Below are positions 1 to 56,985 of a DNA stretch of 56,985 nt, piece by piece. This DNA is from a virus (taxonomy: Duplodnaviria > Caudoviricetes). Within the stretch, counting starts at the first letter, position 1, and the number at the start of each line of letters is the position of its first letter. The stretch is taken from positions 1-56,985 of IMG/VR virus record IMGVR_UViG_3300024334_000003, one strand, 5' to 3'. Under the pieces are notes generated by a model that was not told the origin of the DNA, made no database searches, and saw only the letters and a list, made by a program, of their open reading frames with translations. Made by a program: the position numbers and the translations under genes.

Positions 1-159
1 ACTTCTAGCGATTATTGCCCAGTACAATAGTCAAAAAAAAAAAGAAGAAACTTCACAATCTCCCTTGGTTTCGGAGGTGGGTTCATTGGATTCAAGTTCA
101 CCTACATCTCTGGGTGGAGAACAAGACACTGCACTTTCGGATTTTCTTACGGCACCGAG
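1..159. repeat. Terminal overlap, copy 1 (circular closure)
   Basis: Identical to 56828-56985 except an A11 run here versus A10 there. Confidence 0.97.
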
Positions 160-3100
160 GATAGGTAACAAAAGGGTTCCGCAGTTTGAGGCGGACATCC
201 TGAATGATTATGCCACGTCTTTTGACAACGCATACCTACAAACGATTTACGAAAAGTTTGATGTATCCAAGTTCACAGATATTGTCAACTATGAAAATAG
301 TCAAGGTAGCTATCAGGACTTTCTAAACGCTTTCAACCAATCAAGCACCGAGGACGAAAAGTTCACAGCTAAAAAAGAACTTGTAGATTTCTTGATTGAA
401 GAGGGTGACCCTGACTTTGAAATCAATAGAAGGGTTTTAGGTGGTGTAACTGATGAGGTTTACAGAGACCTTACTGGAAACCCAGAGCTTGAGGGGGAGG
501 ACATCTTAACCCCTATTCCGCTTAAGAATCAGGTATCTAAATCTCTTCAAGACTTAGGAGCTGGTGTCGCCACTAGGTCTGGTGCTAAGCTTAGGGAAAA
601 CCTACCTCAATCCATTCTCGAAGACCCTAAAAAAGTAAGTGATTACGAGAGATACCTGTATGATAATTACGGACTCTCAGTTGACCTGAACGAAGACAAA
701 TACATCGGCGGTGTAGAGGTCGTTGAGGGTGGTGCATTTGCTGGGTTTGGGCGTTCGGTATCCAAGGCGTGGAAAGAGACCATGGCTGGTGGCAACTTCA
801 TACTTGGCGATGCGGTCGCTTCAATGTTTGGTGACGACAACTGGTTCACACAATGGGCCATTCGTGCTGGTGAAGAGGGGAGTGCGCAGGCTGAGGAAAT
901 TGCAAAGGAACTTCCTATTTCGTTAGAGAGACTTGCAGCTAAGACAGACAAGGTGTTGTCTCTTAAGGGAGATGATGGAGAGCTTGACGACTTAATTAAT
1001 GATTACCTCAGAATGGGGGGTGAATCTGTTCCTATGATGGGTGGCGCAATCGTTGCAGGGGTACTCACTAGAGGGGCAGCATCAAGAAGCACAGGGCTTT
1101 CGCAACTTAGAACCTCACTTAAAGGGTTGAGTCGAGCTGAGCAAATTGCAAAGACCAGACAGTTTATGGCTGCTGGTAAAACTATATCTCAGGCAAAGAA
1201 GATTGTCAAAACAAGCCAGACCGCAGGTGCATTTACCGCTACCAGTGCTATGGGTATGGGTACTCAGTACAATGCTGTAAGGGACGAGGAGTGGTTCCAA
1301 GAAATGAGTGGAGCTGAGAAGTCTGCATACACTTCAATCATGGGTGTTGCCGAGGGATTGCCAGCCTTAGTCGCCGCAAACATTAGCGCAAGAGCATTAG
1401 GTAGGCTTTCTAAAGTTGGTAAGGAGAACTTTGTTAAGGGTCTTCTAAAGGCAACTGGTATTGGTATGATTGAGGAGGGTGTTACCGAAGGTGTTACTGC
1501 GGGCATTCAGTACATTACAAGCACATCATTCAACCCCAACGTGGAGTTTGATTTTGATGACATGATGGCTGACGTAAAGGACGGTGTGTACGGTGGTATC
1601 GCGCTTGGCGGTGGTGTTTCCGTTACGGCTCAAATTCCCGGTGCTATCTACGCGGGAGCTATGGCTGTAACATCGCTGCCTTCAGTTCGTGACGCTATTC
1701 AAATCGAGAAGCTCACTAAGGAGTACGATACAGCTCCAGACCAAGCCACGAGACAAGAGATTGGCAGGAAGTTGGAGGCGGCTGTAATGGGTAGGGCTAC
1801 TCGAAACCGGAACAGAAGAAAGTTCTACGAAGACCTACACGAAAACAATAACGAGGCTTGGTCTCAGTTGACTGGCATCCAGAAGAAGATTATCCAACTG
1901 GGATTACAGTTTGAAAGAACTGAAAAGGGTGAGACGAGAGATGGCTTTAAAGCAGAGATGGTTGCGTTGCTTGAGGAAAGAACCAAGCTTGAGAAGGAGC
2001 TTGGCATGGAGTATGACCTCGATATAAACAAAGAGTTTAATCGTGTCAGTGGTAGAATTTCTAAGATTGATAGGTACTACAATGACTACGGCTCTCTGTT
2101 TGAGGGTGACTCAGAATCCACTACTGTAACTGGAGAAAATGCAGACTCTGTTCTTGATGCCATTAATGAGGTGACGTTCAATAGGATTGACCAAGTTGAA
2201 AAGCTAAGCACCGGGGTGAGCATGAAGCGTGCTTTAAAGAATGTTGTAACTGTAGCTAAAGCACTATCCAAGACAGGTAAGTTTGAAGGCATTGTAATTC
2301 ACAAAACAGACACATCATTTATGAACGCGACAGGACAAGCTCTTGGTCGCGGAATGTGGACAGGTAAGGGTAAGATTCACATCTATGCCCCAGCTGCAAT
2401 GGAGAACACATCTTTTCACGAGGCATTTCACGACCTTGTTCTTGAGTCCTTGGGGGAGGAGGCGTTACAAAAGCTATCTGTTTCTCTGTACAAGGGCTTG
2501 TCTGGAGACCTTCGAAAGAAGTACAACAACTTCCTTGCTGGTCAGAGAGGCGTTAATAGAAGGCAGGTTCAAGAGATGGAGGGTGACCCCATGACCGCTG
2601 AGGAGTTCTTGGTTGAGCTTCTTGGAGACATTACAACTGGTGATGTAGGCATTGAGGTAAAGAAAGGTTTGGTAAATCAGTTCAAAGACTTTGTTGCTAA
2701 GGCTGTCAATACCATTCCGGGTGTTGAGGTAGACATGACGGAAGCCGACCCTAGGCTCGATGACCTTGTTACAGCTATTCAAAAAATGACTGGTCAGTTG
2801 GCGGCAGGCGAGGCGGTAACAGCTACCGAAGACTTGCGTGATGCGTCTGTTCGTGCTGGGTATAACGCTATGATGGTGGAGCTTGAGGACATGAGTTCCA
2901 AGGCTCAAGGAATCTACGCTAGGAATAGGGATGTAGAGGAGGTTACTGATGCGGGTCGATGGGCTGCTTCTATGGCTGAGGCCACGGACAGAATGAAGGA
3001 GCTCAAGATGAAGATGGTTCTTCAGGTCGATGCTCTATCGGAGGCGGACGCACAGAAAATCATAGACGACGGAGGTAAGCTGTTCATGACTAAGGATGGG

Positions 3101-6100
3101 CTTGGTGGGGCGTACCTTAAATCTGATGGATACATGGGTGGGTTGTTTAAGAACCCTGACTCACAGTTAAGGGCAATCAGCGCACCTCTTCAAGCCATCA
3201 GAGCAAGGGAGGGAGGTAAGTTTTACGATGCTTTTGCAACAAAGCTTGAGAGTCTTTACGTGAGCAATGGATGGAAGCCAGTTGCTAGGCTTGATTTCAA
3301 TGAGGAGTTTGCACCAGAGGGTTGGAATGACCCTGACTCACCGCTCATAGATAAGCCGGACGTTGTGTTCTTTGTTAAGGGTGAGGGAAAGGTTGGGGAC
3401 GGTATCCGCATGGATGAATACGACGATGCGTTCAACTATGCAGAAGGTCTTGCCAACGGTAAGGCACAGGCATTCATTAGAGAGCTTCAAAACAAGCCCG
3501 GATTAGAGGACTTTCTCACCAAAGCTAACCTCACCGAGACTGAACTTGAGGAGAGAAAGAAGGAACTCTTGCTTCCGGAAAGTCAACGTCAAAAAAGAAA
3601 GCCTATTGTCGTAGAGGCTCTCAAGAACTACGCTGCCCAAGAAATCAATCAGGAGCAGTTCATTGAGATTATCAGGAGGGAGTCACCAATTACTCCGTTC
3701 CCCACTGTTCCCGAGGTTCCAAGCATACTAGATGTTGGTAGTGCCCTTACATCCAATAAGCTGAACGCTGGAATCATTGACGTAAACAAGACCATACCTC
3801 AGGGGTACTATGTTGCGCTTCGTTTGGACATACCTGCATACGACAATTACGATGTGTGGGTTGTTTCCATTCACCAAGGCTCTACCAATGACGTGAGGTC
3901 TCCCAATATGGGGGGCTCTATTGGGTATGGTCAAACGGGACTGATTAGTAATGTTGAGTTCCTTGCCATGCCGAAGGCTGCATTTCAAATTGCTACACAG
4001 AAAGGGAAGGCTCCTATCGCTCGGATGTTCGGCGATTGGAAAAATCACGATTCGCAAGAGTTACGTCAGCGTGCGGTAGACATCATGGCTGGCGACCAGT
4101 ACAACGTCTCAGACCACCCTGTAGGAAAGCACGAGGGATGGGTGCAGGTGGGCATGAATCCCTTCCGTCACAGCTGGTTCTATGACAAGAGGGACGGCAA
4201 CCCGATTGTGTCTGCATCTGAGGTTATTCAGATTGGTGCCCTCGTCCTTGCTAAGGATGTAGAGAAGGTTCCCGTTACCGACGAGAGATTTAGCATAGCC
4301 ACAGAAGACGGTGCGACGATTAAGTTTCAGCACATCCTTCCGGGTCAAGATGGCATGGACACCAAGGTGTCTTTTAGCAACAAGGCACAGAAGTTTGGTC
4401 GCATCTCAAACAGATACGCTGTAGAAGATGGTGAGTTTGAAGAAAGTGCTAATGCTGTACTTCACAACGCTGTGTTTGATGAGGTGCTTAATGAGAGTCA
4501 GGTGATAGTATCATCTCCAGACCACATGCTTGTTGGTACTGTTTTTCTTGACGAAGAAGTTTTGGCTGAAGGTGGCGGCGGATTGTTTTATCCAGTTCGA
4601 ACAAAGAACACATGGGCGTTTGGACAAAAGGGAGATGCTAACGCATTTAAAAACACCGTCAACAAGATGAGAGGTGAGTCTCCTGACGGTAAGGTTCACG
4701 TATTACTTGTCAGTGGGACTGATGATAAAGTGAAGAGCAACATCACCACGATGGAAGCAGGGCTTAATCTTATGGATAGGCTAGTTGGAGAGGGTATCCT
4801 TACACAAAATCAAATTGACAAACTTATCGTGGACTCTTTGAACGACATCATTGATGCATTGCCAGCAAAGAAGGAAGGCAGGTACGGTGAGAAGGTTAAG
4901 TTTAAGGGCAAGAGGGCAGACATTCGTGCGGCTGTGGAGGCAAGTCTTCGCAGAACCGACAACACATCCTTTGAATTAAGGAGAGCTTACATGGATAAGC
5001 TGTTCGCTAACCTCGGGCGCATGTCCGTGATTAGGGAAAACCCTAAGTCTCTTGATAAGGTAAAAGAAATTACGGGAGTAAGTAAGCTGACAAAATCTCA
5101 AGTTGGAAGCACACTCAAGAGGACGCTTGTTCTCTCTATGATTGAGGGTCATCTTCAAGGTGTCCCAAAAGACGTGGTGTATGCTTCGATTGAAGTTGAC
5201 TCAGACCTTGAGGTTGATATGATGCCGGGCAATGAGGCATTCCCTGCTGCTGTGGTCATGAGAGATGCTGGTGGAAATAAAAAGACACCAAAGATTCACT
5301 TGTTCGCAGACAAACCTCATGTCAACGATGTGATGCTTGACAACGAAACAGGTCTAAGTAGGGCAGACTTCATGGAAGCTAAACTTGCTGACGGTGAGTA
5401 TGCTAAGAAGGACGGTGTTCGAAGAAGTGAGGCAAACGAACGTAAGGCTATTGATGGTAGATGGAAGGGCAGTATGGGTTTGCTTCAGGCGGCCTACGGT
5501 TTTGGTAAAACTAGACCCAAGGCTCAAGCTATTGTTGACTCAGAGTCTAAGGCTCAGGGTAGTTTCCTGAAGAAAGTTTCTCAGATGATTGACAAGGTGT
5601 ACCCATCACCTATTATCAGTCGAGATAAGCGCAGAAAGAATCCCGTCACAGGACTGGATGAATCTCAACAGCTAGATGCTTTTGCTTACGCCAAGAGTGA
5701 GGTTATTAAAACCCTGATGGACATGGGTATGTCTAAGGAGGGGGCCGACATGATGTTCAAGAAAGCTGTAGCTTATAAGCAGGGGCGTTCTCAGGGAAAG
5801 AGAGAGGGTATGCGCGTGGCCATGGCTAACGCAGCCGAGACTCGTAAGATGGGGACTAAGGCGAAGAACCTACAGAAAGCTCTCATTCAACTGAAGGATA
5901 AGTCCAAGACCTTTAATGAGTTCTTGACTAAAGCTATTGAGCTGATTGATGGACGCATGAAGGAAGATGCAAAGACTCCTTTTACCCGTTCTCAAATTAC
6001 AGGAATGGTTAAGGCTATCCGACAGGCTCATAAGACCAGCGGAAAGAAGATTGAAGAGCAGGGCATGGAGGCTATGCAAACTTTCATCGACAAAATCTCT

Positions 6101-9100
6101 GTCATCTTTGACAAGAGAGACTCTAGGGCTGAGCTGCAACGATATCTAGATGGTATCAAGCACGCTCAAAAGTTGCAGAAGCGAATTAAAAGAATGGCTA
6201 AGCCAAAGGGTAGAAGCGGTGCGGCAAAAAACGTAACGACCTACGCTAAGATTGCAAACGGTTTGGCTTCAATCAATCCTGCACTTCTACCACAGAACGA
6301 GCTGGAGGGATTCGTCAGCACACTGATGTCAACCATCAGCTCGATGTCCAAGGCTAAGGCGGTCTTTGAACCGGAGATTGAAGCCTATGTTGGGGTGTCT
6401 TTCGCTAAGACCGAGGCGGTAGTTCTATACAATAAACTCAGCAACTATCAAGCAATGGAGGAGCTGGGTCGGCAGGCTGTGTTTATGGCTCGCGCTCAAC
6501 TACGTGCAGCAAAGAACAATACTACTGTAGAAGAAGAGTACAAGAAACTGGTTCAGAATTACGAGAGAAGTAGGTTGTCCTCTAGTCGTAGAGCCATACT
6601 TAAATTCATTGATGACAACCCAACAATCCAACACCCAGATACAGGTGATACTGTTGTGCTTAATGCAAGCAACCCGGCGCACGTTGATTTGATTACTCAA
6701 ATTTTGGCTGAGCAGGCTGCTACAAAAGAGGAGTTGCAAAAAGATGCCATCATCAATGATGTATTACTCCCAAGAATTGTAGCTAATATCGACAAGCTTC
6801 TGGAGGACACACAGATTGCGGACATCCTTGGTATCTATAGCGTTGCAGACTTGGACTTTGATAAACTCAGAGCAAGACTCAACAAACTAAAAAGACATCA
6901 CATCATCAACCTTGATTACAGGCTTGACGATTACCTCATCAATGATTCGGTATATGGTATCGGGTACATGCACGCCCTAGTTCAAGGTAACATCGACATG
7001 CCTAGCGAGCTTGAAAAACTTGTGAAGCGTAAAGGATTGAAGGCGAGAAAAGGTGCTCTTTTTGGTATGCTAGATACTGTCAACTCCTATCTGTCTAATG
7101 TGATTCCAACAGACAGGATAACCTTCGCGAAGCTTAGGGTTGCTATTGGTTTGGCACAGCTAACCAATGACTTTGCTAATGCGGATTTCATTCACAGTCA
7201 GGTGGTTGAGTTGTTAGAGAATGAGATTAACAGAATTACCGAAAAGGGGGGAAGCGTAACAACCAGAATGGACAGAGCTATCATGCAGCTGTACTCTATG
7301 GCTAAGCAGATGCCTGAGTTTGAGGGCGAGCGTGGTCAAGCTGAGGCGGCTTGGTACTTGGAGCTTCGAAACTCTATGCGTAGAACGATTGATTACTACT
7401 CTGAACAGCAGTCTTTTTCTAATGAGGAGATTGATGAGTTTGAAGATGCATTCAATTACATGTTTGGTCAGGCTGAAACTCTTTCAGAAATGATTGCTCG
7501 GGTTGAGTCTGAACGTAAGGACGTAGTAGAGATGGTTCAGTTTACGTCGGACATTCACTCCAGCCTAATGCCAGCGTTTAGAAACTACGTCGAGAGGTAC
7601 CTTGGAAAGGAGCTGGTTGTCGAGGACAACTACACTGCGTTTGAGGTTATTCCTGAAACTGGAGCAAGGGATGTAGATGATATGCTAAGCCTTCGAATTT
7701 CACTCAATGATGCATTGGCAAGCAGCTCACTATCGCAAACTAAAAAGGTAGCCGGAAGTAGCTTCGAGAGAAATCCTCGTTCACTCAAGGGTAAGAATAG
7801 AATTGGTCTTGACTTTCTATCTGCTAATGAGAGAACGCTGAGAGACAACATCATATTATCCAACACCGTTGGTTCAGTTGTCCGGTCAAGCTATGTCCTA
7901 AACAGCGACGCAATGAAAGCCTTCATCCCGAACGCTAAAGTTCGCATGGAGCTTGAGAGGAAAATCATGCTGTATGTGCAGCAAGATACTGGTAAGGTTC
8001 CTCCAGTGTTCCAACCTACATTCAAGGCTATTGGTTTTAGATTTATCAATCCCATCAACCTGCTTCGTAATGCGGTCATCGTAAGGGCATTCGGTAGCTT
8101 CGGTATTCAAACTCTAAAGCAGAGCACGGTTCTTACGTCGGTCATGTTTCAGACCAAGAACCCAATTCAATCTATCCCATATCTGCTTACAACCCTATCG
8201 GAGATGGTTTACTTCTCCTTGAAGACTCTAGCGGGTAAAGACGCTAAGCTTGCTCTTGATGATGGCAGGTACAAACTACTTCAAAACTCTCCTGTATTCC
8301 AGAGGGACTACGAGGCGGGCAACATCGACCCATACACAGGAAGGATGAGCCTTGATGAGGGTAGTCTTCAAAAGGTCGTCAGGACTATGAGTGATATAAG
8401 CTTGAAGAACCTTAAGGGTACTGACAAGGTTGCGGCTGTAGCATCGTGGTTCACATTCTATGGCGATGCCTTGATTACCGAAGGTGTCGTTGAAAGCTTT
8501 GACCAGATTGATTGGGATGCCGAAGCTGTTGCCCCAAACTCTACAGCATTGAGCTATGCTGACGCAATGGTGAATAAAGACCAAGCGGCATCTACTCCAA
8601 GAGAGGCAGCTGATTTGTACATGCAGGAGAAAGGTGTGAAATCTATCATTGCCTACCTCGCACAAAACATTCTTCTTCCGTTCTCAAGATTCGCCGTAAA
8701 TAAGAAGCGAAGCATCTCTTCGGATGCAATGAGAATCTACAAGGGTGATGCGCAAGCTAAAAAAGAGGGTGGTGTTGCTATGCTTGGACACGCTGCCGAA
8801 CTTACTCTATTTGCTTACATCGGAAAGGTTTTGATTCCTGCAATCTCTAGCATCTTTATCGACGATGACGAAGACGAGATGCCAAAAGATTCGAGATGGA
8901 GAGACATTTTATCTCAGGTTGTTGTCGATGCGAACCCGCTCCCTCCAATGGGAATCTTTGACAATCAAGTCAAGGGTGCTTTGAACAAGTTCCTATTCTA
9001 TCCCTACGATGTAATGATGGAAGGTGATTTTGATTTAGGTGACGATGATGGATACGAAAGATGGACAAGGCTAGGTAAAGGTGTTCCGATGTACTATAAG

Positions 9101-9799
9101 TCTGCGCCAAAGGATGTAACTCAAGGGTTCACTAGATTCCTTGGCCCGTATGGAGACTTCCTTGACGATGCTAGAACGATTGCAGAAAACCTTGCGCTAC
9201 CACCCAACCGTGTGGTGTCGAGCAACGGTACGGAGTACTTCGTTAGACCAGAAGACAAGGAAGCAATGGAATTGCACTACTACATGAAGACTTTCCTGTT
9301 TGCTGGTCAGATGTTCGGGCTGTCTAGTAAAGAGATTGATGTTCTTGTACGTGAGATGGATGACCTACCAAGAGACAGGAGGTTGTCCAACGAGGAGGCA
9401 CTCGCTGCATACGAGGTGATTGCAGAAAAGTATGGCAACACCCTTGAAGGTGAGGTCATAGGCGAGGAGAGAATCATGAAGGTCATCGAAGACAAAGAAT
9501 CTGTGTTTGATAAGAAGCGTGCTGCTGACAGCTTCCGCTCTTCTGTCAAGCCATTGGTGGCGGAGCAGGTGATGAGGGATGAATACCCAGAGGGCTACAA
9601 GTCATATATCAGAGAGGCTCGCAAGCTACCTAAGCAACTTAAGAACGCTAGAGATTACTACGCCTACCTCAGGGGGAAGAGTCAAGACATGGAGCCGCAA
9701 GAGTTTGAAAAGTTCAAGACATTCATTGACTCTTATCTGGCCATCGTCAGACCTTCGTTCTACGTTGAGGAGCAATACATAGAATCCGTAGAAGAATGA
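65..9799 (+). CDS. Giant virion/ejection polyvalent protein; true start probably ATG 56766 across the junction (about 3286 aa). Contains a zincin metallopeptidase, a GNAT-like domain and further unassigned domains
   Basis: 3244-aa ORF open back through base 1; HEAFH at 2417-2431 with downstream EEFLVE; YDAF..LESLY..GWKPVARLDFNEEFAP.GW..PDVVF segment; last gene of the ejection-protein cluster. Confidence 0.75.
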   Translation: MVSEVGSLDSSSPTSLGGEQDTALSDFLTAPRIGNKRVPQFEADILNDYATSFDNAYLQTIYEKFDVSKFTDIVNYENSQGSYQDFLNAFNQSSTEDEKFTAKKELVDFLIEEGDPDFEINRRVLGGVTDEVYRDLTGNPELEGEDILTPIPLKNQVSKSLQDLGAGVATRSGAKLRENLPQSILEDPKKVSDYERYLYDNYGLSVDLNEDKYIGGVEVVEGGAFAGFGRSVSKAWKETMAGGNFILGDAVASMFGDDNWFTQWAIRAGEEGSAQAEEIAKELPISLERLAAKTDKVLSLKGDDGELDDLINDYLRMGGESVPMMGGAIVAGVLTRGAASRSTGLSQLRTSLKGLSRAEQIAKTRQFMAAGKTISQAKKIVKTSQTAGAFTATSAMGMGTQYNAVRDEEWFQEMSGAEKSAYTSIMGVAEGLPALVAANISARALGRLSKVGKENFVKGLLKATGIGMIEEGVTEGVTAGIQYITSTSFNPNVEFDFDDMMADVKDGVYGGIALGGGVSVTAQIPGAIYAGAMAVTSLPSVRDAIQIEKLTKEYDTAPDQATRQEIGRKLEAAVMGRATRNRNRRKFYEDLHENNNEAWSQLTGIQKKIIQLGLQFERTEKGETRDGFKAEMVALLEERTKLEKELGMEYDLDINKEFNRVSGRISKIDRYYNDYGSLFEGDSESTTVTGENADSVLDAINEVTFNRIDQVEKLSTGVSMKRALKNVVTVAKALSKTGKFEGIVIHKTDTSFMNATGQALGRGMWTGKGKIHIYAPAAMENTSFHEAFHDLVLESLGEEALQKLSVSLYKGLSGDLRKKYNNFLAGQRGVNRRQVQEMEGDPMTAEEFLVELLGDITTGDVGIEVKKGLVNQFKDFVAKAVNTIPGVEVDMTEADPRLDDLVTAIQKMTGQLAAGEAVTATEDLRDASVRAGYNAMMVELEDMSSKAQGIYARNRDVEEVTDAGRWAASMAEATDRMKELKMKMVLQVDALSEADAQKIIDDGGKLFMTKDGLGGAYLKSDGYMGGLFKNPDSQLRAISAPLQAIRAREGGKFYDAFATKLESLYVSNGWKPVARLDFNEEFAPEGWNDPDSPLIDKPDVVFFVKGEGKVGDGIRMDEYDDAFNYAEGLANGKAQAFIRELQNKPGLEDFLTKANLTETELEERKKELLLPESQRQKRKPIVVEALKNYAAQEINQEQFIEIIRRESPITPFPTVPEVPSILDVGSALTSNKLNAGIIDVNKTIPQGYYVALRLDIPAYDNYDVWVVSIHQGSTNDVRSPNMGGSIGYGQTGLISNVEFLAMPKAAFQIATQKGKAPIARMFGDWKNHDSQELRQRAVDIMAGDQYNVSDHPVGKHEGWVQVGMNPFRHSWFYDKRDGNPIVSASEVIQIGALVLAKDVEKVPVTDERFSIATEDGATIKFQHILPGQDGMDTKVSFSNKAQKFGRISNRYAVEDGEFEESANAVLHNAVFDEVLNESQVIVSSPDHMLVGTVFLDEEVLAEGGGGLFYPVRTKNTWAFGQKGDANAFKNTVNKMRGESPDGKVHVLLVSGTDDKVKSNITTMEAGLNLMDRLVGEGILTQNQIDKLIVDSLNDIIDALPAKKEGRYGEKVKFKGKRADIRAAVEASLRRTDNTSFELRRAYMDKLFANLGRMSVIRENPKSLDKVKEITGVSKLTKSQVGSTLKRTLVLSMIEGHLQGVPKDVVYASIEVDSDLEVDMMPGNEAFPAAVVMRDAGGNKKTPKIHLFADKPHVNDVMLDNETGLSRADFMEAKLADGEYAKKDGVRRSEANERKAIDGRWKGSMGLLQAAYGFGKTRPKAQAIVDSESKAQGSFLKKVSQMIDKVYPSPIISRDKRRKNPVTGLDESQQLDAFAYAKSEVIKTLMDMGMSKEGADMMFKKAVAYKQGRSQGKREGMRVAMANAAETRKMGTKAKNLQKALIQLKDKSKTFNEFLTKAIELIDGRMKEDAKTPFTRSQITGMVKAIRQAHKTSGKKIEEQGMEAMQTFIDKISVIFDKRDSRAELQRYLDGIKHAQKLQKRIKRMAKPKGRSGAAKNVTTYAKIANGLASINPALLPQNELEGFVSTLMSTISSMSKAKAVFEPEIEAYVGVSFAKTEAVVLYNKLSNYQAMEELGRQAVFMARAQLRAAKNNTTVEEEYKKLVQNYERSRLSSSRRAILKFIDDNPTIQHPDTGDTVVLNASNPAHVDLITQILAEQAATKEELQKDAIINDVLLPRIVANIDKLLEDTQIADILGIYSVADLDFDKLRARLNKLKRHHIINLDYRLDDYLINDSVYGIGYMHALVQGNIDMPSELEKLVKRKGLKARKGALFGMLDTVNSYLSNVIPTDRITFAKLRVAIGLAQLTNDFANADFIHSQVVELLENEINRITEKGGSVTTRMDRAIMQLYSMAKQMPEFEGERGQAEAAWYLELRNSMRRTIDYYSEQQSFSNEEIDEFEDAFNYMFGQAETLSEMIARVESERKDVVEMVQFTSDIHSSLMPAFRNYVERYLGKELVVEDNYTAFEVIPETGARDVDDMLSLRISLNDALASSSLSQTKKVAGSSFERNPRSLKGKNRIGLDFLSANERTLRDNIILSNTVGSVVRSSYVLNSDAMKAFIPNAKVRMELERKIMLYVQQDTGKVPPVFQPTFKAIGFRFINPINLLRNAVIVRAFGSFGIQTLKQSTVLTSVMFQTKNPIQSIPYLLTTLSEMVYFSLKTLAGKDAKLALDDGRYKLLQNSPVFQRDYEAGNIDPYTGRMSLDEGSLQKVVRTMSDISLKNLKGTDKVAAVASWFTFYGDALITEGVVESFDQIDWDAEAVAPNSTALSYADAMVNKDQAASTPREAADLYMQEKGVKSIIAYLAQNILLPFSRFAVNKKRSISSDAMRIYKGDAQAKKEGGVAMLGHAAELTLFAYIGKVLIPAISSIFIDDDEDEMPKDSRWRDILSQVVVDANPLPPMGIFDNQVKGALNKFLFYPYDVMMEGDFDLGDDDGYERWTRLGKGVPMYYKSAPKDVTQGFTRFLGPYGDFLDDARTIAENLALPPNRVVSSNGTEYFVRPEDKEAMELHYYMKTFLFAGQMFGLSSKEIDVLVREMDDLPRDRRLSNEEALAAYEVIAEKYGNTLEGEVIGEERIMKVIEDKESVFDKKRAADSFRSSVKPLVAEQVMRDEYPEGYKSYIREARKLPKQLKNARDYYAYLRGKSQDMEPQEFEKFKTFIDSYLAIVRPSFYVEEQYIESVEE

Positions 9800-10266
9800 A
9801 GCTAGAAGTGATGAGGTTTAGCAGCCAAGAGCGGGACACGCTGGGGCTGTTGTTTGATGTGAGCAACGGGACAGAGTTCCGTGAGTTTCTTTGCTTCACC
9901 CTTGAGGACGAAGACAGAAAGGAGAAGGTCATGCATGAGACACGAATCCCTGCGGGAACATACAAGCTAAGGCTAAAGACTTGGGGTGGATACCATGACA
10001 GGTACACCAAAAGGTTTGGCGACATGCACAAGGGTATGCTTGAGGTATTGGATGTGCCTAACTTCGAACACATTCTGATTCATTGCGGCAACGATGAGGA
10101 CGATACTAGCGGGTGCCTCTTGCTTGGCAATACCCAGACGGAGAACATCGCGTCCACTGGATTTGTCGGTGGCTCGACCGCAGCATACAAAAGAGTTTAC
10201 CCTCCCATCGCAGCTGCACTGGAGTGTGAGGAATGTACAATTACATACACCGATTACGATGGATGA
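9796..10266 (+). CDS. DUF5675-family protein, putative endolysin
   Basis: CFTLED..RIPAGTY..VPNFEHILIHCGN..DTSGCLLLG pattern; adjacent to holin. Confidence 0.8.
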   Translation: MKLEVMRFSSQERDTLGLLFDVSNGTEFREFLCFTLEDEDRKEKVMHETRIPAGTYKLRLKTWGGYHDRYTKRFGDMHKGMLEVLDVPNFEHILIHCGNDEDDTSGCLLLGNTQTENIASTGFVGGSTAAYKRVYPPIAAALECEECTITYTDYDG

Positions 10267-10699
10267 TAAAAAGAAAATCAAAGACACTGGTCTAGGCAAG
10301 TGGCTTGCTAAAGCTGCGCCTAATGTACTCAGCACTGTAGGGGATTTACTTCCCGATAAAGGAGCACTTGGCATAGTCAAGAACTTGCTTGATAAAGAGC
10401 CGGGTGTTTCACCAGAGGAGGCTAAGGCTCGTGTTGATGCGGAGATTGCTTACCAAAACAATGTGACCGAGCGTTGGAAAGCCGACATGAGCAGCGATGT
10501 AAAGCTCGCTAAGTACATTAGGCCAGTAACACTGATTGCCTTGATGGTAATGTTTGTAATGACCATGGTGCTAGACTCTATGGATAACCTTCCATTCAAC
10601 GTGAAGGACAGCTACGTGTCTCTCCTTGAGATACTTATGCTTACATCATTTGGTGCTTACTTTGCAGGACGAACCATTGAGAAATCCAGAACAAAATGA
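10259..10699 (+). CDS. Holin (3TM/GTA-holin-like); start at ATG 10259 (MDDKKK)
   Basis: VTERWKADM.SD..LAK.IRP then two hydrophobic helices and a YFAGRTIEK end. Confidence 0.75.
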   Translation: MDDKKKIKDTGLGKWLAKAAPNVLSTVGDLLPDKGALGIVKNLLDKEPGVSPEEAKARVDAEIAYQNNVTERWKADMSSDVKLAKYIRPVTLIALMVMFVMTMVLDSMDNLPFNVKDSYVSLLEILMLTSFGAYFAGRTIEKSRTK

Positions 10700-10827
10700 G
10701 CGAAGAAGAATTTGATATCAGCTTTCTTGACCCGAAGAAACTTAAGGAGTCAGAAGACAAGATTGAATCGGGGGAAATCACCTGTAACATTGAAAGTCCA
10801 GAGGATTGCGAGTCATGTAGTGGCTAA
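10696..10827 (+). CDS. 43-aa acidic peptide ending C-x7-C-x2-C-SG, resembling the RNR alpha-subunit tail; not in the ORF track
   Basis: ATG overlaps the holin stop (ATGA); MSEEEFDISFLDPKKLKESEDKIESGEITCNIESPEDCESCSG; stop lies just before the terminator. Confidence 0.75.
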   Translation: MSEEEFDISFLDPKKLKESEDKIESGEITCNIESPEDCESCSG

Positions 10828-10858
10828 CAAAAACCCCCACTCCGAAGAGCAGGGGTCT
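10826..10858 (-). terminator. Intrinsic terminator where the two arms converge
   Basis: Minus strand ACCCCUGCUC-UUCG-GAGUGGGGGU followed by a U run; C(UUCG)G tetraloop. Confidence 0.85.
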
Positions 10859-10916
10859 GAAAGGTAACCAAAATTCGCTATGCACTATCCGGCGTAACGC
10901 AATGCAATATACATCT

Positions 10917-11402
10917 TTATGGCATTCGCCAGAGCTCTGACACCTTGCATTTGTAAGCGTCAACGTGCTCAACAAAGCGTCCATCTCTATCCCCCTTGCG
11001 TACGCGCTTCGCTTTACTAAGAAAATCTTTCTTGGTTATCCAGCCTAGTGCCCACACCCTGAAGCTATTGTCTGTCTTGACGATAGATGTAAAGATGTAT
11101 GTATCACAGTCCTGATGCAGACTAGTGTCTGCAATATGGCAATCGAAGTAAGGTGATGGTAGTTTGGTTCTGCGCTTGGTCTTGATGTCGGCTGTAAGGA
11201 CGTTGCCTTTGGGTGCCCATAATAAATCGTAGTCGTAAGTGTCTTCAAGGCTCTGTTTCAGGTGCTCTGAAACCGATTGCTCTGCAATGAATGCCTCTAG
11301 ATTTGCTTCACCCTCTGTGATACTGTTGTTCAATGCGCCCATTTCTTCTGCGCGTTCTTCCGCTCTGGTAATCATGCTAGATGTTACCGAGAGCTCAACC
11401 AT
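10917..11402 (-). CDS. Putative PD-(D/E)xK nuclease; probable start 11402
   Basis: AEQ..YDYDL..DIKTKR pattern; start overlaps the upstream stop. Confidence 0.55.
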   Translation of the reverse strand: MVELSVTSSMITRAEERAEEMGALNNSITEGEANLEAFIAEQSVSEHLKQSLEDTYDYDLLWAPKGNVLTADIKTKRRTKLPSPYFDCHIADTSLHQDCDTYIFTSIVKTDNSFRVWALGWITKKDFLSKAKRVRKGDRDGRFVEHVDAYKCKVSELWRMP

Positions 11403-11688
11403 ACGAGATGAATACAGGAGTCTTGTCTCCAACGTACGAGCCAACGACATTAAACTCCATAAACTCAACAGCATCCTCAATAGTCATACCGTCTCTATGG
11501 ATTAGGATTGCAACACAGGTGTCGTAATCGTACACAGCTACGACGTTTGCCCCTTGCGTGTGACCAATCAAAGCTTCTTCGAAGCCATCAGCCAATAGTG
11601 CATCGTTCTCTGCTAACACCTCGATAAGGTAGTCTCTTTTAAACTTATTGAGACCAGCGATAAACTCTTTAGTGGGTCGTGTGTTCAT
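11395..11688 (-). CDS. Conserved phage hypothetical protein
   Basis: ADGFEEALIG..VAVYD..EDAVEFMEFNV.GSYVG..TPVF; overlaps neighbours in operon style. Confidence 0.8.
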   Translation of the reverse strand: MNTRPTKEFIAGLNKFKRDYLIEVLAENDALLADGFEEALIGHTQGANVVAVYDYDTCVAILIHRDGMTIEDAVEFMEFNVVGSYVGDKTPVFISYG

Positions 11689-11921
11689 TTCAAATCCATT
11701 ACTCGTAAGAACATCTCCCCGCTCTGCTCATCAAACGTCTTGATTGCTTTGTAAATCTTTCGAGACTCTCTTTTCACAGCTTCCCGCTCACCCTTCGTTG
11801 AATCCGTTCCTAGGCCGCAGTGCAAAGCACAGTCCATCCTAAGGAGTTCGTCCATCTTTTGTTTGTTTGTCCAAGTCGTGAAGCCTAGAATCTTATCAAG
11901 GTCGTTAATAGTGTAATCCAT
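11685..11921 (-). CDS. Hypothetical protein
   Basis: 78-aa ORF coupled to neighbours. Confidence 0.75.
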   Translation of the reverse strand: MDYTINDLDKILGFTTWTNKQKMDELLRMDCALHCGLGTDSTKGEREAVKRESRKIYKAIKTFDEQSGEMFLRVMDLK

Positions 11922-12441
11922 TTAGGTAACTGTTAAGGGCGCGTTGTACATTCGTCTCTTCTCCAATCGGACACTTTTGATGCAGCAATTCCTGTATCCC
12001 ATCAAAGCCACCCTTCCACACGTACTTCTCTTTCACTTCGCGTAGGTATTCCTTCGCTTCGGTGACATCATTCTCTAGTGACTTGATTGTTTTTCTAAGG
12101 TTGAACACCTCGTCCTTGAGTTCTTTGTTGCTCATGTCAAACACTGGGTCGAAGCTACCGAAGTACACTGCCTTTGCGCTTTCGTAAGAACCCTTTAGCC
12201 TTTTATCATTTAGAATGTATCCGTCAAATCGTTTCTTGTAATGAACGATAGTGCAGTGAGTCTTACCTAAGTACTCAGCAATAGCCACCGTAGTGTAGCC
12301 TTTGTCCAGTAAAATCTTGGAGAAAATCATACGGGCATTTACGTTCTCTCTGTTTCGGCATGTTGTAATCAGCTCAACATGAAGAATACTTTCAATGGCT
12401 TCATGAAGAACGCCAAACTCCTTGTTAATAATCTTTTTCAT
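11905..12441 (-). CDS. DnaA C-terminal-like HTH protein with coiled coil
   Basis: R.RENVNARMIF..GYTTVAIAEYLGKTHCTIVHY. Confidence 0.7.
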   Translation of the reverse strand: MKKIINKEFGVLHEAIESILHVELITTCRNRENVNARMIFSKILLDKGYTTVAIAEYLGKTHCTIVHYKKRFDGYILNDKRLKGSYESAKAVYFGSFDPVFDMSNKELKDEVFNLRKTIKSLENDVTEAKEYLREVKEKYVWKGGFDGIQELLHQKCPIGEETNVQRALNSYLNGLHY

Positions 12442-13022
12442 TGTGTTAAAATCGGAAGAGAAAGATAGTCAGAGATGTCATAAACAGCCAACCATCCGCT
12501 GTCTTTTTTCGATTCATTAACAATGTCCCAAGGGAGAATCCAACCACGAGCATTTACCGGCATGCCCTTACCCACGTCTCTTTTTGTGTCGCGTGTATTC
12601 AAGTTGCTTGATTCACAGAATCTTAGTAGGGCTTCGCGATTGAAGAGATGTGCGTGAGCCTTGTAGTCACCGAAACTATTCTCATCAACTACAGAATTAG
12701 GTGCGTACTTAACCACATAGACCCAGAACTTTGAAATCGACGCTCGAATCCCACTGTCTTTATCCGCACTTGGGTTTACATACTCAATAAACAAGTTGCC
12801 AGTGGGGTCTCTACGGGTTCCGTATGAAGACCAAGCTGCCGAAGATTTGGTATCCCACTTGACCTCGAAGTAAACCTTATCGTTTAACTCAACGATATCC
12901 CAGCCGGGCTCCTTGCCCTTTGACTGCTCGTATGTCTTTAGGGTTTTGTCCCCCATGAAGTTCATCCAAGCAAGCTCTATCCTGTTGCCGAACTCAAGGT
13001 CTTTACGAAAGCTGCTCGCCAT
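12438..13022 (-). CDS. PD-(D/E)xK-family nuclease
   Basis: FRKDLEFG..E..WDI..FEVKWD..TGNLFIEY..SGI. Confidence 0.65.
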   Translation of the reverse strand: MASSFRKDLEFGNRIELAWMNFMGDKTLKTYEQSKGKEPGWDIVELNDKVYFEVKWDTKSSAAWSSYGTRRDPTGNLFIEYVNPSADKDSGIRASISKFWVYVVKYAPNSVVDENSFGDYKAHAHLFNREALLRFCESSNLNTRDTKRDVGKGMPVNARGWILPWDIVNESKKDSGWLAVYDISDYLSLPILTQ

Positions 13023-13236
13023 CTGATTCTTCTATGTATTCTTTGAGGGCAGACTTCATCGCTTCAAGTTCCAAGATTACCAGCTTCTTGTACTTTCTTA
13101 CGTTGTCTAGCGTTTGTTCCCAACTCGTAGTTGGTGCACCCTTGTTATCATGAAGCTGCTCGTACAGCTCCGTAGTCAACCTCTGTATCTCCTGAGTACA
13201 GTAGCTGTAGAGCTGACTAAGTTTTTGCTTCTCCAT
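13003..13236 (-). CDS. Hypothetical protein
   Basis: 77-aa helical ORF in operon. Confidence 0.7.
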   Translation of the reverse strand: MEKQKLSQLYSYCTQEIQRLTTELYEQLHDNKGAPTTSWEQTLDNVRKYKKLVILELEAMKSALKEYIEESDGEQLS

Positions 13237-13699
13237 TGATGTGGTTTAGTATGATTGTTATCGCGGCATCTATTTGTTTTTTGTTTTTAGGGATGAAAAG
13301 CATGTAGTCATCCATGTCATTGTCTGACATGTACTTTAAAAACAGCTTCCACCTTAAAGGAAAAGTGTGTTGTGACGGAACCCAACCCTTCGTCTCAATA
13401 ATGAAACGATTCTCATGGCTAACAAAGTCTGGAGTGTACTTAATCGAAAGCACCACCTTGTTTGTCGCATCAGTCATAACATCCTTACCCCGTGTAGACT
13501 TATGATAAACTCCGGGATACCTAAACGAGTCCATCAACTGAAATGTCTCGCTCTCGTATCCGAAATCAATCTTTGATTCTTTCAGCCTATCGTAACAATA
13601 GGTCTCAAGAGTTGACTTCAGTTTTACTGAACCCCTATTGAGGTCTTTGCGCTTCCTCCCCTTTGTTGGTCTTGTTAAGTTCTTCCGGCGTTTAGCCAT
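13217..13699 (-). CDS. T7 endonuclease I-like Holliday junction resolvase
   Basis: KSTLE..L..IDFGYE..YTPDF..IIETKG. Confidence 0.75.
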   Translation of the reverse strand: MAKRRKNLTRPTKGRKRKDLNRGSVKLKSTLETYCYDRLKESKIDFGYESETFQLMDSFRYPGVYHKSTRGKDVMTDATNKVVLSIKYTPDFVSHENRFIIETKGWVPSQHTFPLRWKLFLKYMSDNDMDDYMLFIPKNKKQIDAAITIILNHINGEAKT

Positions 13700-13715
13700 G
13701 CCCTAAAAGGTACGG

Positions 13716-15512
13716 TCAGAAGTGCTCTTGTTTGCCAACAAGTTGTTCACCAAGGGATGTGAATAGCTTTTGGTTAGGTGCGTGCATGGAGAATCCGCTC
13801 TGTGTTGAGTTCAATTCAAAAATCATTGGCTGCGCGTAGGGAGTAGGCTTGCCACCAGTGTCCACCTCTCGAACCTTTCGAACGTGCATCTCAATACACC
13901 TGCGCTGGAGAACATCGGGGTGCTGAATCTTTCTGTGTAACGTGATGAAGCAGTCACTACGATTCACCCACTTTCCGCCATGCTCAGTATCCTCTGCGTA
14001 AGGAGCGACTTGCAAACCGTCATCGCCTTTCCTGCGCTGGCTCTCAGTAATGCTGTGAGCGTTTACCCATACAGCTACATCCATGTTGTTGCTGAATGTC
14101 AGAAACTCTGACGCTGCCTCATAGTGATACTCGTGAGGGCCGACCCCACGGTTAGCACTCATCTCAATCTTAAGGCTGTTGTATGGGTCAACAAACAACC
14201 CGTCAATCGGATTCTGTCTGTGCACCTTTTCACAAAACAAGATGATGTCCATGTAACTGTAGGTCTTGCTGTTGTCAATAACAACGAAGTGCTTCTCAAC
14301 CCAGTCCCTAGCCTTCTTACGTTCGATGTGTGTGGTGCTACCAATTTTCTTATTGAGCGCAAACTGAACCAGCTTCATCTTCACAGCAGCAGAACGATTC
14401 TCTGAGCTGTAGATTACCCACCTCCAGTTGTGATGCATTGAACTTGCCACCATCATCCACAAAGCAAAGGTTGTCTTTCCTATGTTGCTGTGTCCATTAA
14501 TCATGACAAACTCCTTCTTGAATACGAAGCTCTCATCCATGAACTGATTGCCTGTGCTAAGACCCAAGGGTATCTTACCGTCCACATACTGCTCAATCCA
14601 ATCGTAGTCGATGTCGTCACTGCTGATAAAGGACATGTCCCCATCGTTCAGCTTCATGTCCCTCTTAATCTTCTCCTCGCTGTTAATGACCTCGCTAATC
14701 GGTAGCTTCTTTCCGTTCGCTATACCGTCGCTGATGGTTAACAAAGCCCCTTCCAAATTGTCAATGTCCCGCTTCTGAATCTCTCTTTCGAGTATCCAAC
14801 GAGCAACATCTTCTTCAACAATACCACTGGCAATGTACCCACCCATCAAACTAGAGGCTTTGACAAGAACGTTGTGCTTCTCTCCTTCCTCCGCCTTGCG
14901 TATCATAGCTGCTGCTATGTTTATCTTATTGAAGTCAGTCCTCCCAGACAAGTCTTTAACAACCTGATTCTGAGAATGCTCCGACATCATGCCACCATAC
15001 CTCTCGTACTCAGCCTTGACAACGATGTCTGGGTCGTATGACTCAAAGCACGCTCGGCTTTCATTCTCTCCGGTGCTGTCTAACTCAAGGCCGTACTGCT
15101 CATCGAAGTATTTAATCAGTGAGCGGTAGTGGTCACGATGTCTCTCCGTGTTTGTTATCTCTACTAGACCCTTAACTCCCTCACCACTGGGTGATGCCCA
15201 GCACGACATGATGTACTTGTCTCCAGCTAAGGCAGACTTAGTTCTTGTTACGTCAACATGGTCAAAGTCTAGGACTACCAAGCCACTGTGAAACTTTAAG
15301 CTGTCATCGCTTCGCTTGTTCTTCTCAAAGACTCCGCTAAAACATACCGCAGGTAGTTCTTGCTTAATAGACTTATCACCTTCCCTTATTAGCTCAACCT
15401 TTGGTTGGCTCTTGCCTTCCTTAATCCTCGTTAGAACTGTATCTAACGATGTTATTACTGCCTCCTGTGTGCGATAGATTGTCGGATAGATGGTTACCTT
15501 TTGATTGTTCAT
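13716..15512 (-). CDS. Primase-helicase (BT4734/VirE N-terminal domain plus DnaB-like helicase)
   Basis: KQELPAVCFSG..SGLVVLDFDH..SPSGEGVK..RACFESYDP; Walker A GHSNIGKT; FVDPYN. Confidence 0.85.
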   Translation of the reverse strand: MNNQKVTIYPTIYRTQEAVITSLDTVLTRIKEGKSQPKVELIREGDKSIKQELPAVCFSGVFEKNKRSDDSLKFHSGLVVLDFDHVDVTRTKSALAGDKYIMSCWASPSGEGVKGLVEITNTERHRDHYRSLIKYFDEQYGLELDSTGENESRACFESYDPDIVVKAEYERYGGMMSEHSQNQVVKDLSGRTDFNKINIAAAMIRKAEEGEKHNVLVKASSLMGGYIASGIVEEDVARWILEREIQKRDIDNLEGALLTISDGIANGKKLPISEVINSEEKIKRDMKLNDGDMSFISSDDIDYDWIEQYVDGKIPLGLSTGNQFMDESFVFKKEFVMINGHSNIGKTTFALWMMVASSMHHNWRWVIYSSENRSAAVKMKLVQFALNKKIGSTTHIERKKARDWVEKHFVVIDNSKTYSYMDIILFCEKVHRQNPIDGLFVDPYNSLKIEMSANRGVGPHEYHYEAASEFLTFSNNMDVAVWVNAHSITESQRRKGDDGLQVAPYAEDTEHGGKWVNRSDCFITLHRKIQHPDVLQRRCIEMHVRKVREVDTGGKPTPYAQPMIFELNSTQSGFSMHAPNQKLFTSLGEQLVGKQEHF

Positions 15513-15795
15513 CGCGCAGCTGTTGTATCTGGTTCTCGTACCACTTCGCTTTCTCCATGTCCTGTTCCGTGCTGTTCCCCGGCTTGTTCCCTGCCCGCAT
15601 GCGGTACTTGAAGGCGTTCATCTCGCAGAACGCGATGTATGAGTCTTTGCCCCAGATATCTATCATCATCTGCCACACTTGCTTGCCCCCCTTCTTGTAG
15701 TGTTCTGGGTTTATAGCGTCTAAGTCTGATTTGGATTCGGTCTTTGAAGGCTTCGAGAGTTTCGATGATGCCTTTGATTGTATCAATTTGCTCAT
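15421..15795 (-). CDS. DUF3310 (SaV-like) protein
   Basis: DAINPEHY..AFCEMNAFKYRMRAG.K..QDMEKAKWY. Confidence 0.75.
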   Translation of the reverse strand: MSKLIQSKASSKLSKPSKTESKSDLDAINPEHYKKGGKQVWQMMIDIWGKDSYIAFCEMNAFKYRMRAGNKPGNSTEQDMEKAKWYENQIQQLRDEQSKGNHLSDNLSHTGGSNNIVRYSSNED

Positions 15796-16120
15796 GAGGA
15801 GAAAGAAAGTTTTGAGCCTCTAAATTTAAGTCCTCCTTCTTAAAGGAGTCTAGCTTTTCCAGCACGATTCGAGAGGCTGTTTCGAAGTACGTTCTGTATT
15901 CAGGGCTTGAGACAAAATACATCTCATGACTCTGCTTGTAATGATAGATAGTTGTCCTGTCTTTATTGAACAGGTTTGAACACACGCTGTGGTGAAAGAA
16001 GGCTGATGTAGCATTGGCAAAAGCTGCCCTTATCTCTACCTGCTGTCGTGTTCTTGAGTTGTTTGGTTCTGCACCGATAGCCTCGATGTAGGCTTGGTAT
16101 GTTTGTCTGAAGATGTCCAT
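15509..16120 (-). CDS. Second DnaA-C-like HTH protein; start ATG 16120
   Basis: SRTRQQVEIRAAF..LFNKDRTTIYHY; the upstream in-frame extension lies inside the tRNA. Confidence 0.6.
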   Translation of the reverse strand: MDIFRQTYQAYIEAIGAEPNNSRTRQQVEIRAAFANATSAFFHHSVCSNLFNKDRTTIYHYKQSHEMYFVSSPEYRTYFETASRIVLEKLDSFKKEDLNLEAQNFLSPHEQIDTIKGIIETLEAFKDRIQIRLRRYKPRTLQEGGQASVADDDRYLGQRLIHRVLRDERLQVPHAGREQAGEQHGTGHGESEVVREPDTTAAR

Positions 16121-16135
16121 TGAAATAAAATTTTG

Positions 16136-16209
16136 TACTCCCGGCAGGACTCGAACCTGCAACATTCACCTTAGAAGGGTGATGCTCTATCCAGTTGAGC
16201 TACGAGAGC
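16136..16209 (-). tRNA. tRNA-Arg(UCU), CCA not encoded
   Basis: GCTCTCG-TAGCTCAACTGGATAGAGC-A-TCACC-CTTCTAA-GGTGA-ATGTT-GCAGG-TTCGAGT-CCTGC-CGGGAGT-A cloverleaf. Confidence 0.95.
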
Positions 16210-16212
16210 ATA

Positions 16213-56765: not shown

Positions 56766-56985
56766 ATGGATGAACAGTTAAAGGCACTGCTTACTGAAGC
56801 GCAGGCTAATGGTGCTTCTGAATCAGAACTTCTAGCGATTATTGCCCAGTACAATAGTCAAAAAAAAAAGAAGAAACTTCACAATCTCCCTTGGTTTCGG
56901 AGGTGGGTTCATTGGATTCAAGTTCACCTACATCTCTGGGTGGAGAACAAGACACTGCACTTTCGGATTTTCTTACGGCACCGAG
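56766..56985 (+). CDS. N-terminus of the giant protein, continuing at base 1
   Basis: TATTTTTG 4 nt before ATG; MDEQLKALLTEAQANGASESELLAIIAQYNSQKKK; in frame with 65..9799 only with A11. Confidence 0.8.
   Translation, partial: MDEQLKALLTEAQANGASESELLAIIAQYNSQKKKKKLHNLPWFRRWVHWIQVHLHLWVENKTLHFRIFLRHR
56828..56985. repeat. Terminal overlap, copy 2
   Basis: Matches 1-159 with one fewer A. Confidence 0.97.

Follow-up and report, generated by a model that had tools for sequence, protein, structure and literature searches.

Do the short KAQ tripeptides that recur in a giant phage protein mark the places where this protein is cut, or does their recurrence have another meaning? The question is raised by the window analyzed here, a stretch of 56,985 nt that forms the whole phage contig of IMG/VR record IMGVR_UViG_3300024334_000003 (Caudoviricetes). 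Its giant open reading frame (ORF) at 2..9799 (+) encodes residues 22-3286, plus the stop, of a protein of 3,286 amino acids (aa). A first-pass annotation had described this protein as a self-cleaving polyprotein in which a zincin protease cuts at KAQ, a tripeptide that would also be the boundary for the exchange of cassettes. The analysis indicates that the sites are well supported as domain and cassette junctions. That these junctions are cleaved by some protease is a putative but, judged from sequence comparison, likely property of the family. The fuller reading is that of a virion-associated polyvalent cassette protein, from an uncultured podophage related to phages of Flavobacteriia, which would be cut at K-x-Q by its own embedded HExxH domain; to this we give slightly less than an even chance.

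Residues are numbered as in P0002, which equals the numbering of the printed open frame plus 21. P0002 to P0005 are four proteins from other contigs, each of 3,286 aa and identical over the searched region (residues 740-1900). The pattern noticed at first sight is present as described: KAQ occurs exactly five times (nt 2900, 3461, 4382, 5519 and 5549) and is absent from the remainder of the 3,265 residues readable in the frame, KFQ occurs at nt 4322, and HEAFH at nt 2417 (residue 785 when the ORF is counted from TTG-65). The blocks that lie between sites have 187, 287 and 379 aa, in agreement with the initial sizes of about 187, 290 and 380 aa. The rough initial estimate was about one KAQ by chance, and 0.89 are expected from the composition.

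The count of five has a shuffle P of 0.0027 (20,000 shuffles), a figure that is post hoc. One rival explanation takes the repetition of KAQ for a chance or compositional effect without function, and the single sequence speaks for it. KAQ ranks only 9th among the over-represented tripeptides of the giant protein; nine tripeptides reach its p-value, as compared to a mean of 4.2 and a maximum of 10 in 100 shuffles. With about four equally extreme tripeptides in shuffled sequences, the count is not beyond chance after multiple testing is considered. K-x-Q as a whole is at expectation in the giant protein (11 found, about 9.9 expected). It counts in favour of processing sites in the giant, on the other hand, that the motif is not enriched elsewhere in the phage proteome: the 34 other ORFs have 3 KAQ against 2.2 expected and 25 K-x-Q against 28.

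It is the comparison with relatives, and not the count in one sequence, that takes the motif beyond chance. Residues 740-1900, used as a query, retrieved 271 giant relatives (the family has at least 271 clusters at 90% identity), and 54 of these were aligned. The six sites are located, all on the + strand, at 2900..2908 (junction 1, KAQ, residues 988-990), 3461..3469 (junction 2, KAQ, 1175-1177), 4322..4330 (KFQ, 1462-1464), 4382..4390 (junction 4, KAQ, 1482-1484), 5519..5527 (KAQ, 1861-1863) and 5549..5557 (junction 6, KAQ, 1871-1873). [KR]-x-Q is present at 988 in 50 of 53 aligned relatives, at 1482 in 49 of 54, and at 1175, 1462 and 1871 in all 54. Among 30 independently fetched IMG/VR loci the five junctions are kept, from 988 to 1871, in 25, 27, 30, 24 and 30. 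The sixth site at 1861 is the least conserved, with 19 of these 30 loci and a column conservation of about 46%.

At the five junctions the K and the Q are conserved at 0.91-1.00 over the 54 relatives, with only 0.24-0.6 in the adjacent columns, and in a second alignment K988, K1175, Q1177, Q1464, K1871 and Q1873 are invariant (36/36). The middle residue is free and can be A, S, P, L, M, Q, K, R, Y or F. The assumption that KAQ itself is the conserved unit was therefore not borne out; what is conserved is K-x-Q. In the pooled junction contexts the pattern is K-[A>F,S,P]-Q-[G/A/K/R/H] with a hydrophobic residue next. At the sites Lys is encoded freely by either of its codons, and so is Gln; this variation in synonymous codons indicates that selection acts on the protein, and we rejected for the same reason the idea that K-x-Q is a recombination signal at the DNA level. 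The positional conservation persists down to about 38% identity, which is difficult to reconcile with a chance effect.

The sites separate the protein into blocks. An N-terminal conserved region (2..2140, +; residues 22-734) is followed by block A, a zincin-like HExxH domain (2141..2899, +; 735-987), by block B, a GNAT-fold acetyltransferase-like cassette (2909..3460, +), and by block C, a highly conserved enzyme-like cassette (3470..4321, +). A spacer of 17 residues with low prediction confidence (4331..4381, +) extends from KFQ to the next KAQ. The fast-evolving block D (4391..5518, +) and block E, the conserved C-terminal region of about 1,413 aa (5558..9799, +), complete the protein.

BLAST alignments with 116 relatives break at about 961-989/992-1012, 1167-1173/1172-1193, 1463-1470, 1479-1522 and 1856-1871, and in distant relatives the order of the blocks differs. 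For a broader survey we used 46 non-redundant giants with 303 breakpoints, each backed by at least three partners, and searched for the motif within a radius of 10 residues. [KR]xQ is present at 105 of the 303 breakpoints, as compared to 33.7 expected; K.Q is found at 90 (23.4 expected) and KAQ at 25 (3.9 expected). The four control motifs stay at 0.99-1.29 times expectation (Q.[KR] 41/31.9, [KR].E 61/57.5, [KR].N 38/38.5 and [DE].Q 39/33.8). The motif is hence enriched 3-6 fold at breakpoints and the controls are near 1, which again contradicts a chance origin. It weighs on the other side that these breakpoints are not phylogenetically independent and that local alignments tend to end at conserved islands.

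Individual events have the same appearance. Four insertions or replacements were inspected, and three of them are flanked by K-x-Q on both sides: insertions of 193 aa and 83 aa, and a replacement by a DUF7178 cassette. The two insertions form an array of KSQ, a 193-aa ART-like cassette, KAQ, an 83-aa cassette and KVQ (KVK in some relatives). The DUF7178 cassette takes the place of block D in some relatives and sits between RFQ and KLQ or KSQ. The fourth event is an exception to the junction rule, since it lies in a loop and not at a junction: residues 1433-1609 of P0020 are a 176-aa insertion within a surface loop of block C, with KSQ at its end and no K-x-Q at its start. Around junction 1, relatives carry large cassette insertions on either side. 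Per-block identities are a mosaic; in the closest clade block C has 65-71% identity as compared to 75-94% for the other blocks, and in P0008 the drop begins at the residue right after KAQ-1175. Block C has been swapped recently in close relatives (66% identity, with 81-90% in the other blocks), from directly after this site on. The first-pass proposal that gains, losses and exchanges of cassettes fall at the motif is in this respect correct, with K-x-Q in the place of KAQ.

We compared the sites with the edges of predicted domains using AF2 models from 24-sequence alignments. The models cover residues 735-1182 (mean predicted local distance difference test, pLDDT, 65) and 1170-1885 (mean pLDDT 76). 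Every site lies in or beside a low-pLDDT segment between predicted domains. In the first model these segments are at model residues 236-263, with KAQ-988 at 254-256, and at 440-448, with KAQ-1175 at 441-443. In the second they are at 1-8, at 296-304 right after KFQ, where the pLDDT of the spacer falls below 50, and at 693-716, which include both C-terminal KAQ. The following domain sets in with a helix or strand 2-5 residues past each K-x-Q; KAQ-1482 stands at the N-terminal edge of block D, and the C-terminal region begins after KAQ-1871. The edges of the GNAT fold, from about 991/997 to 1148/1177, are bracketed by KAQ-988 and KAQ-1175. The expected match between domain edges and motif is thus found in the models, and the same short motif stands at all or most domain junctions, as it would in a polyprotein.

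Block A carries the candidate protease. The HEAFH motif (2417..2431, +) provides H827, E828 and H831, and a downstream E-F-L-V-E (2603..2617, +) contains Glu889 and Glu893 as candidates for a third zinc ligand; all five residues are invariant in 36/36 aligned relatives. The AF2 model gives a helix, three strands, the HExxH helix and the Glu helix (H25-43, E50-54, E72-75, E78-82, H90-104 and H150-165), albeit with a pLDDT of only 55-80. Both motifs are in predicted helices, with the Glu on the later one, and in the model this order of elements is that expected for a zincin core. Of the claim that block A is a zincin protease, the intact HExxH and Glu in all aligned relatives are supported; block A is a candidate protease whose matches to curated zincin families are at best sub-threshold.

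Searched as a profile, block A retrieves 324 clusters (50% identity), nearly all of them within proteins of 2,000-4,000 aa. From 143 new representatives at 50% identity, 114 were eligible because they combine a near-complete match with sequence after the domain. HExxH is kept in all 114, and [KR]xQ occurs within 50 residues after block A in 69 as compared to 27.1 expected; control motifs are near expectation (29/25.6, 49/43.3, 27/32.1 and 27/28.3). An earlier count over 66 hand-picked representatives (43, with 15.8 expected) is superseded by the automatic count over all 143. This coupling of the motif to HExxH is the best indirect argument that both belong together. It is also the third comparative result, after conservation and breakpoints, which contradicts the view that the repeated KAQ is accidental; we consider that view very improbable. 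Short block A matches were also considered as natural split genes that end at K-x-Q, but the 14 inspected were mostly apparent gene fragments and uninformative. A further HExxH was seen in one relative (L027:3664-4158), where an extra cassette just before the equivalent of KAQ-1175 matches LPD23 (E 8e-13); some giants consequently have two metallopeptidase-like domains.

Is the embedded domain then the enzyme that cuts? Several observations weigh against this. Pfam, NCBIfam, PHROGs and PDB sequence searches connect block A with no curated zincin at a significant level, and none of 24 family members has a zincin family match. The only relevant matches are sub-threshold and occur in 2 of 10 remote homologues, to DUF5700 (E 4e-4 and 2.7e-3) and Peptidase_M78 (7e-3). 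In fold searches of the model 735-1182, which covers blocks A and B together, GNAT rows filled both lists. When block A was modeled in complex with a linker of 42 residues around KAQ-1175, the score was 0.02 (mark 0.32), which is not evidence either way. Furthermore, conserved residues at the P3 and P1 positions on the non-prime side are more typical of Ser/Cys proteases than of zincins, and the combination of Lys at P3, Gln at P1 and a small or basic residue at P1' resembles the specificity of Ser/Cys proteases.

The Ser/Cys-like pattern and the lack of a significant zincin match suit an explanation in which K-x-Q is cut by another protease, from the host, from an unrecognised phage gene or in block C of the giant itself, while the HExxH domain acts on peptidoglycan or on host targets. 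For the metallopeptidase of the phi24B polyvalent protein, the available text of that study (bioRxiv 10.64898/2026.04.10.717836) proposes a role on peptidoglycan. Block C would be a candidate in so far as it has many invariant polar residues, which include H1312, H1411, S1412 and D1416, ends exactly at K-F-Q and is the most widely shared module. However, block C gave no protease fold match, although it was barely covered, and the smaller proteins outside the family that carry block C mostly lack K-x-Q flanks.

Nor do the other ORFs that were scanned offer a likely candidate. When 30 other ORFs were scanned for families, the sole peptidase was an M43 metzincin at 24832-25989 (+; Pfam E 9e-19). 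This enzyme appears to have a signal peptide; it also has an HExxHxxxxxH motif and, in its C-terminal part, repeats that resemble dockerin repeats by eye. It is present in two of five complete related genomes and missing from the three others, whose giants keep the sites. Judged from its sequence it is probably an exported accessory enzyme, and its signal peptide and its absence from these three relatives make it an unlikely processing enzyme. A K-T-Q in the capsid protein (residue 101) was rejected as a shared site since it is kept in just two of the five genomes; with no conserved K-x-Q in the capsid, a general head-maturation protease using the motif is unlikely. The giant protein therefore does not have the profile of a prohead protease substrate: no such protease is found among the 30 other ORFs, the motif in the capsid is unconserved, and there is no enrichment outside the giant. 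On balance we regard cutting by another protease as improbable.

Another explanation is that K-x-Q is never cut. The motif could be a junction element or an N-terminal cap, which serves as a contact in packaging or ejection, as a site of Lys acylation by the GNAT domain, as a Lys/Gln cross-link or as a structural cap, and the protein would remain one chain like the N4 virion RNA polymerase (vRNAP). Part of the structural evidence can be read in this way. Only 2-5 residues separate K-x-Q from the helix or strand with which the following domain sets in, and KFQ-1462, where homology matches stop, forms the last beta-strand of block C in the model; in distant relatives it is replaced by Q-F-Q, K-F-S or F-F-R, so that this site is at least partly structural.

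Known proteins also speak for an uncut chain and against self-cleavage. N4 vRNAP is packaged unprocessed according to the account of Iyer et al. (PMC5512222), and the available text of the N4 structure paper reports an HExxH subdomain and makes no mention of proteolysis. The 2,811-aa polyvalent protein gp47 of phi24B was found by proteomics in podophage virions and proposed to be an ejection protein; in the accessible part of that report no processing of gp47 is described, and peptidoglycan is the proposed target of its metallopeptidase (10.64898/2026.04.10.717836).

Against an uncut junction element stands the fact that a cap would not be expected to recur, with any middle residue, before folds as unrelated as those of the GNAT domain, blocks C, D and E, the ART-like cassette and the 83-aa cassette. 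The tandem sites at 1462/1482 and 1861/1871, which are 10-20 disordered residues apart, resemble spacer peptides. In addition, we know of no partner or modifying enzyme specific for K-x-Q. An uncut junction is the strongest of the rivals but still, in our estimate, rather unlikely. If the sites are uncut, a large family of phage proteins would still have a strongly selected motif that lacks an explanation.

The most economical account of these data is cleavage at the motif. In the mechanism that we propose, a constant scaffold made of the N-terminal 730 aa, the HExxH zincin-like domain and the C-terminal region of about 1,400 aa would enclose a variable central array of enzymes. In this genome the cassettes would be the GNAT domain, an L5-gp82-like domain and domain D, each preceded, at a distance of 2-5 residues, by a flexible linker with Lys-x-Gln at its end. 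These linkers would be the proteolytic processing sites, with the cut probably after Gln. The embedded HExxH domain would be the most likely enzyme; it would start in cis with the K-x-Q at its own C-terminal end and go on to the other sites, either in the capsid or after ejection. The predicted products are 1-990, 991-1177 (GNAT), 1178-1464, a 20-aa spacer, 1485-1863, a 10-aa spacer and 1874-3286, and the released enzymes would presumably serve as effectors. Since every cassette has the same short junction, cassettes could be inserted, lost and swapped between phages without a loss of processing. The most far-reaching version, in which K-x-Q is a family-wide processing code that is read by a dedicated HExxH protease with Lys at P3 and Gln at P1 and that frees effectors from a fixed scaffold, is a tentative proposal which we find possible rather than probable.

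The block of about 187 aa had been called GNAT-like, and Foldseek and VIA confirm this fold for block B: Foldseek gives a probability of 1.00 to many GNATs (best E 8.3e-4; template modeling, TM, value by target 0.5-0.6), and VIA finds 1ghe with Z 11.7, a root mean square deviation of 2.7 and 138 aligned residues, with 114 chains at Z >= 8. The window's own protein has no Pfam GNAT match. Block C is the most conserved module and a common one in phage polyvalent-type proteins; in BFVD it recurs in uncharacterised phage proteins with GNAT, ART-PolyVal, lysozyme, zeta-toxin or PcfJ-like domains, and block D recurs in such uncharacterised proteins as well. The resemblance of block C to PF25735 (Phage_L5_gp82) is weak: a match at E <= 0.05 is found for 19 of 24 relatives (the best at 7.4e-4), the score of P0112 is 27.4 bits at a cutoff of 27, and the window's own copy has no match. 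Block C was also seen in L001 and L002 (MW202701, Roseobacter phage CRP-9 gp54), in proteins of 1,000-1,400 aa whose genes directly follow the portal gene in unrelated podophages.

For blocks C and D together, a Foldseek search of the PDB returned nothing at E <= 0.001, and the VIA-wide search returned only rows of Z <= 5.9 with block C barely covered. The rows for block D with a YTH/EVE/McrB-N-like fold have a Z of 4-4.8, which is within the stated noise range of VIA. In the ESM Atlas block C had leads only below 0.9 and block D no usable match. Block E has one hydrophobic segment (residues 2951-2976) and gave no family match, no tblastn match and no match in a PDB profile search. The whole giant protein has no credible Pfam, PHROGs or NCBIfam family, and two sub-threshold Pfam rows are outside the studied region. 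At least two unrelated domains of catalytic or effector type are combined in one polypeptide, namely the HExxH domain, the GNAT fold and blocks C and D, and the cassettes of relatives add ART-PolyVal, LPD23, DUF3293/SAM-lyase-like, DUF7178, GNAT and helicase families.

The N-terminal region is Gly-rich with moderately hydrophobic segments and has no conserved K-x-Q. A profile of its family has a weak PDB match (E 0.0086; window about 790-1180, residues 262-393) to the orbivirus membrane-penetration protein VP5. Gly-rich hydrophobic segments are found at residues 466-578 (window 1397-1735), near the VP5-matching stretch. The match and the segments could hint at a membrane role in ejection.

The giant ORF runs off the start of the window because the assembly is circular, with ends that overlap by 158 nt. 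The true start of the gene is at 56766..56985 (+), with an ATG at 56766 and the first 21 codons, followed by the overlap, which repeats window nt 1-159 minus one A. Window 1-159 and 56828-56985 are identical except for an A-run of 11 in the former and 10 in the latter; the shorter run would frameshift the N-terminus of the giant gene, which points to an assembly or homopolymer ambiguity within the coding region. The gene is the last of a same-strand structural module in which a family scan recognizes terminase, portal, a collagen-like tail fibre and several 'virion structural protein' PHROGs, one of which we take to be the capsid protein. The giant protein is in this way encoded beside virion and packaging genes, as known for the polyvalent class, and we infer that it is packaged itself. 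The other arm of the genome encodes primase/helicase, exonuclease and an anti-restriction protein. The GC content rises locally at 22001-24000 (0.52 as compared to about 0.46) over the ORF 22899-23906 (-), which matches phrog_7245, anti-restriction, with E 2e-68; an ORF of 310 aa on the other strand overlaps with it.

A megablast of nt 1-20000 against phage records gave no nucleotide-level match. The portal is 27-30% identical to the portals of Cellulophaga phages phi38:1 and phi40:1, Calle and Flavobacterium phage elemo. The latter phage encodes a distant relative of the giant (L003:3817-14901), a protein of 3,694 aa that was annotated as structural by its depositors. It has HExxH at 1543 and then RFQ at 1683; K-x-Q overall is not enriched (19 against 16.9), and two near-identical linkers, K-x-Q-EDAVQKQ, are located at residues 1085 and 1217.

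How does the protein relate to known systems? The closest class is that of the phage polyvalent proteins, in which, according to the text of Iyer et al. (2017, J Bacteriol, PMC5512222), zincin-like HExxH domains are the commonest hub and autoproteolytic release of domains by embedded zincins has been proposed. The giant fits this class, as had been supposed at the outset: unrelated enzymatic domains are strung in one very large phage polypeptide, and its relatives carry Pfam families derived from that work (ART-PolyVal, LPD23) next to DUF3293/SAM-lyase-like, DUF7178 and GNAT domains. It differs in that a specific junction motif is defined here for one large family, and in that none of the Pfam, PHROG or NCBIfam models recognizes the protein of the window itself. 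In the main text of PMC5512222 the word 'linker' does not occur and 'cleavage site' occurs only in the title of a reference; the supplementary architectures may list the family. In the literature searched we found neither a description of a junction motif for polyvalent giants nor a proven case of cleavage. Self-cutting by zincins has been predicted for polyvalent proteins since 2017, and the K-x-Q linkers are the first concrete candidate cutting sites for such multi-enzyme phage proteins. With a junction motif defined, the prediction can be put to a direct test. The junctions also suggest that polyvalent giants evolve by cassette exchange, and they provide a practical rule for dividing several hundred unannotated phage proteins of 3,000 aa into cassettes, from which candidate anti-defence enzymes can be catalogued.

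N4 gp50 (about 3,500 aa) is, as far as the available descriptions go, likewise a giant podophage protein which is ejected into the host and in which an HExxH subdomain lies beside a large helical C-terminal region. It is packaged unprocessed, however, and its central module is an RNA polymerase and not a set of exchangeable cassettes. There was no significant sequence match to N4; the sole PDB row was mini-vRNAP with E 0.22, outside the HExxH region. The phi24B gp47 protein is again a large polyvalent protein with a metallopeptidase domain. As described in the available text, it has other LPD domains and no junction motif, a distinction that is made by description and not by sequence.

Prohead proteases recognize motifs of a similar kind: gp21 of T4 cuts at L/I-x-E and gp175 of phiKZ at S/A/G-x-E. 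Their substrates share with the giant a three-residue motif with a free middle position, which marks cuts in packaged proteins. The difference is that these proteases are encoded by separate genes and also cut capsid and scaffold, while here no such protease was detected in the scanned ORFs and the motif is confined to one protein. Positive-strand RNA viruses cut their polyproteins after Gln by 3C/3CL proteases. The analogy between these polyproteins and polyvalent proteins is drawn in the text of Iyer et al. (PMC5512222), and the giant adds to it a junction with Gln followed by a small residue, in one chain with unrelated domains and an embedded protease candidate. There is no homology between the two systems; the candidate here is of the metallo-type HExxH kind and not a chymotrypsin-like Cys protease, and it is part of a virion protein of a double-stranded DNA phage. 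If the proposed processing code is true, this family would be the double-stranded DNA phage counterpart of the RNA virus polyproteins, and block A would represent a new peptidase family with a defined specificity.

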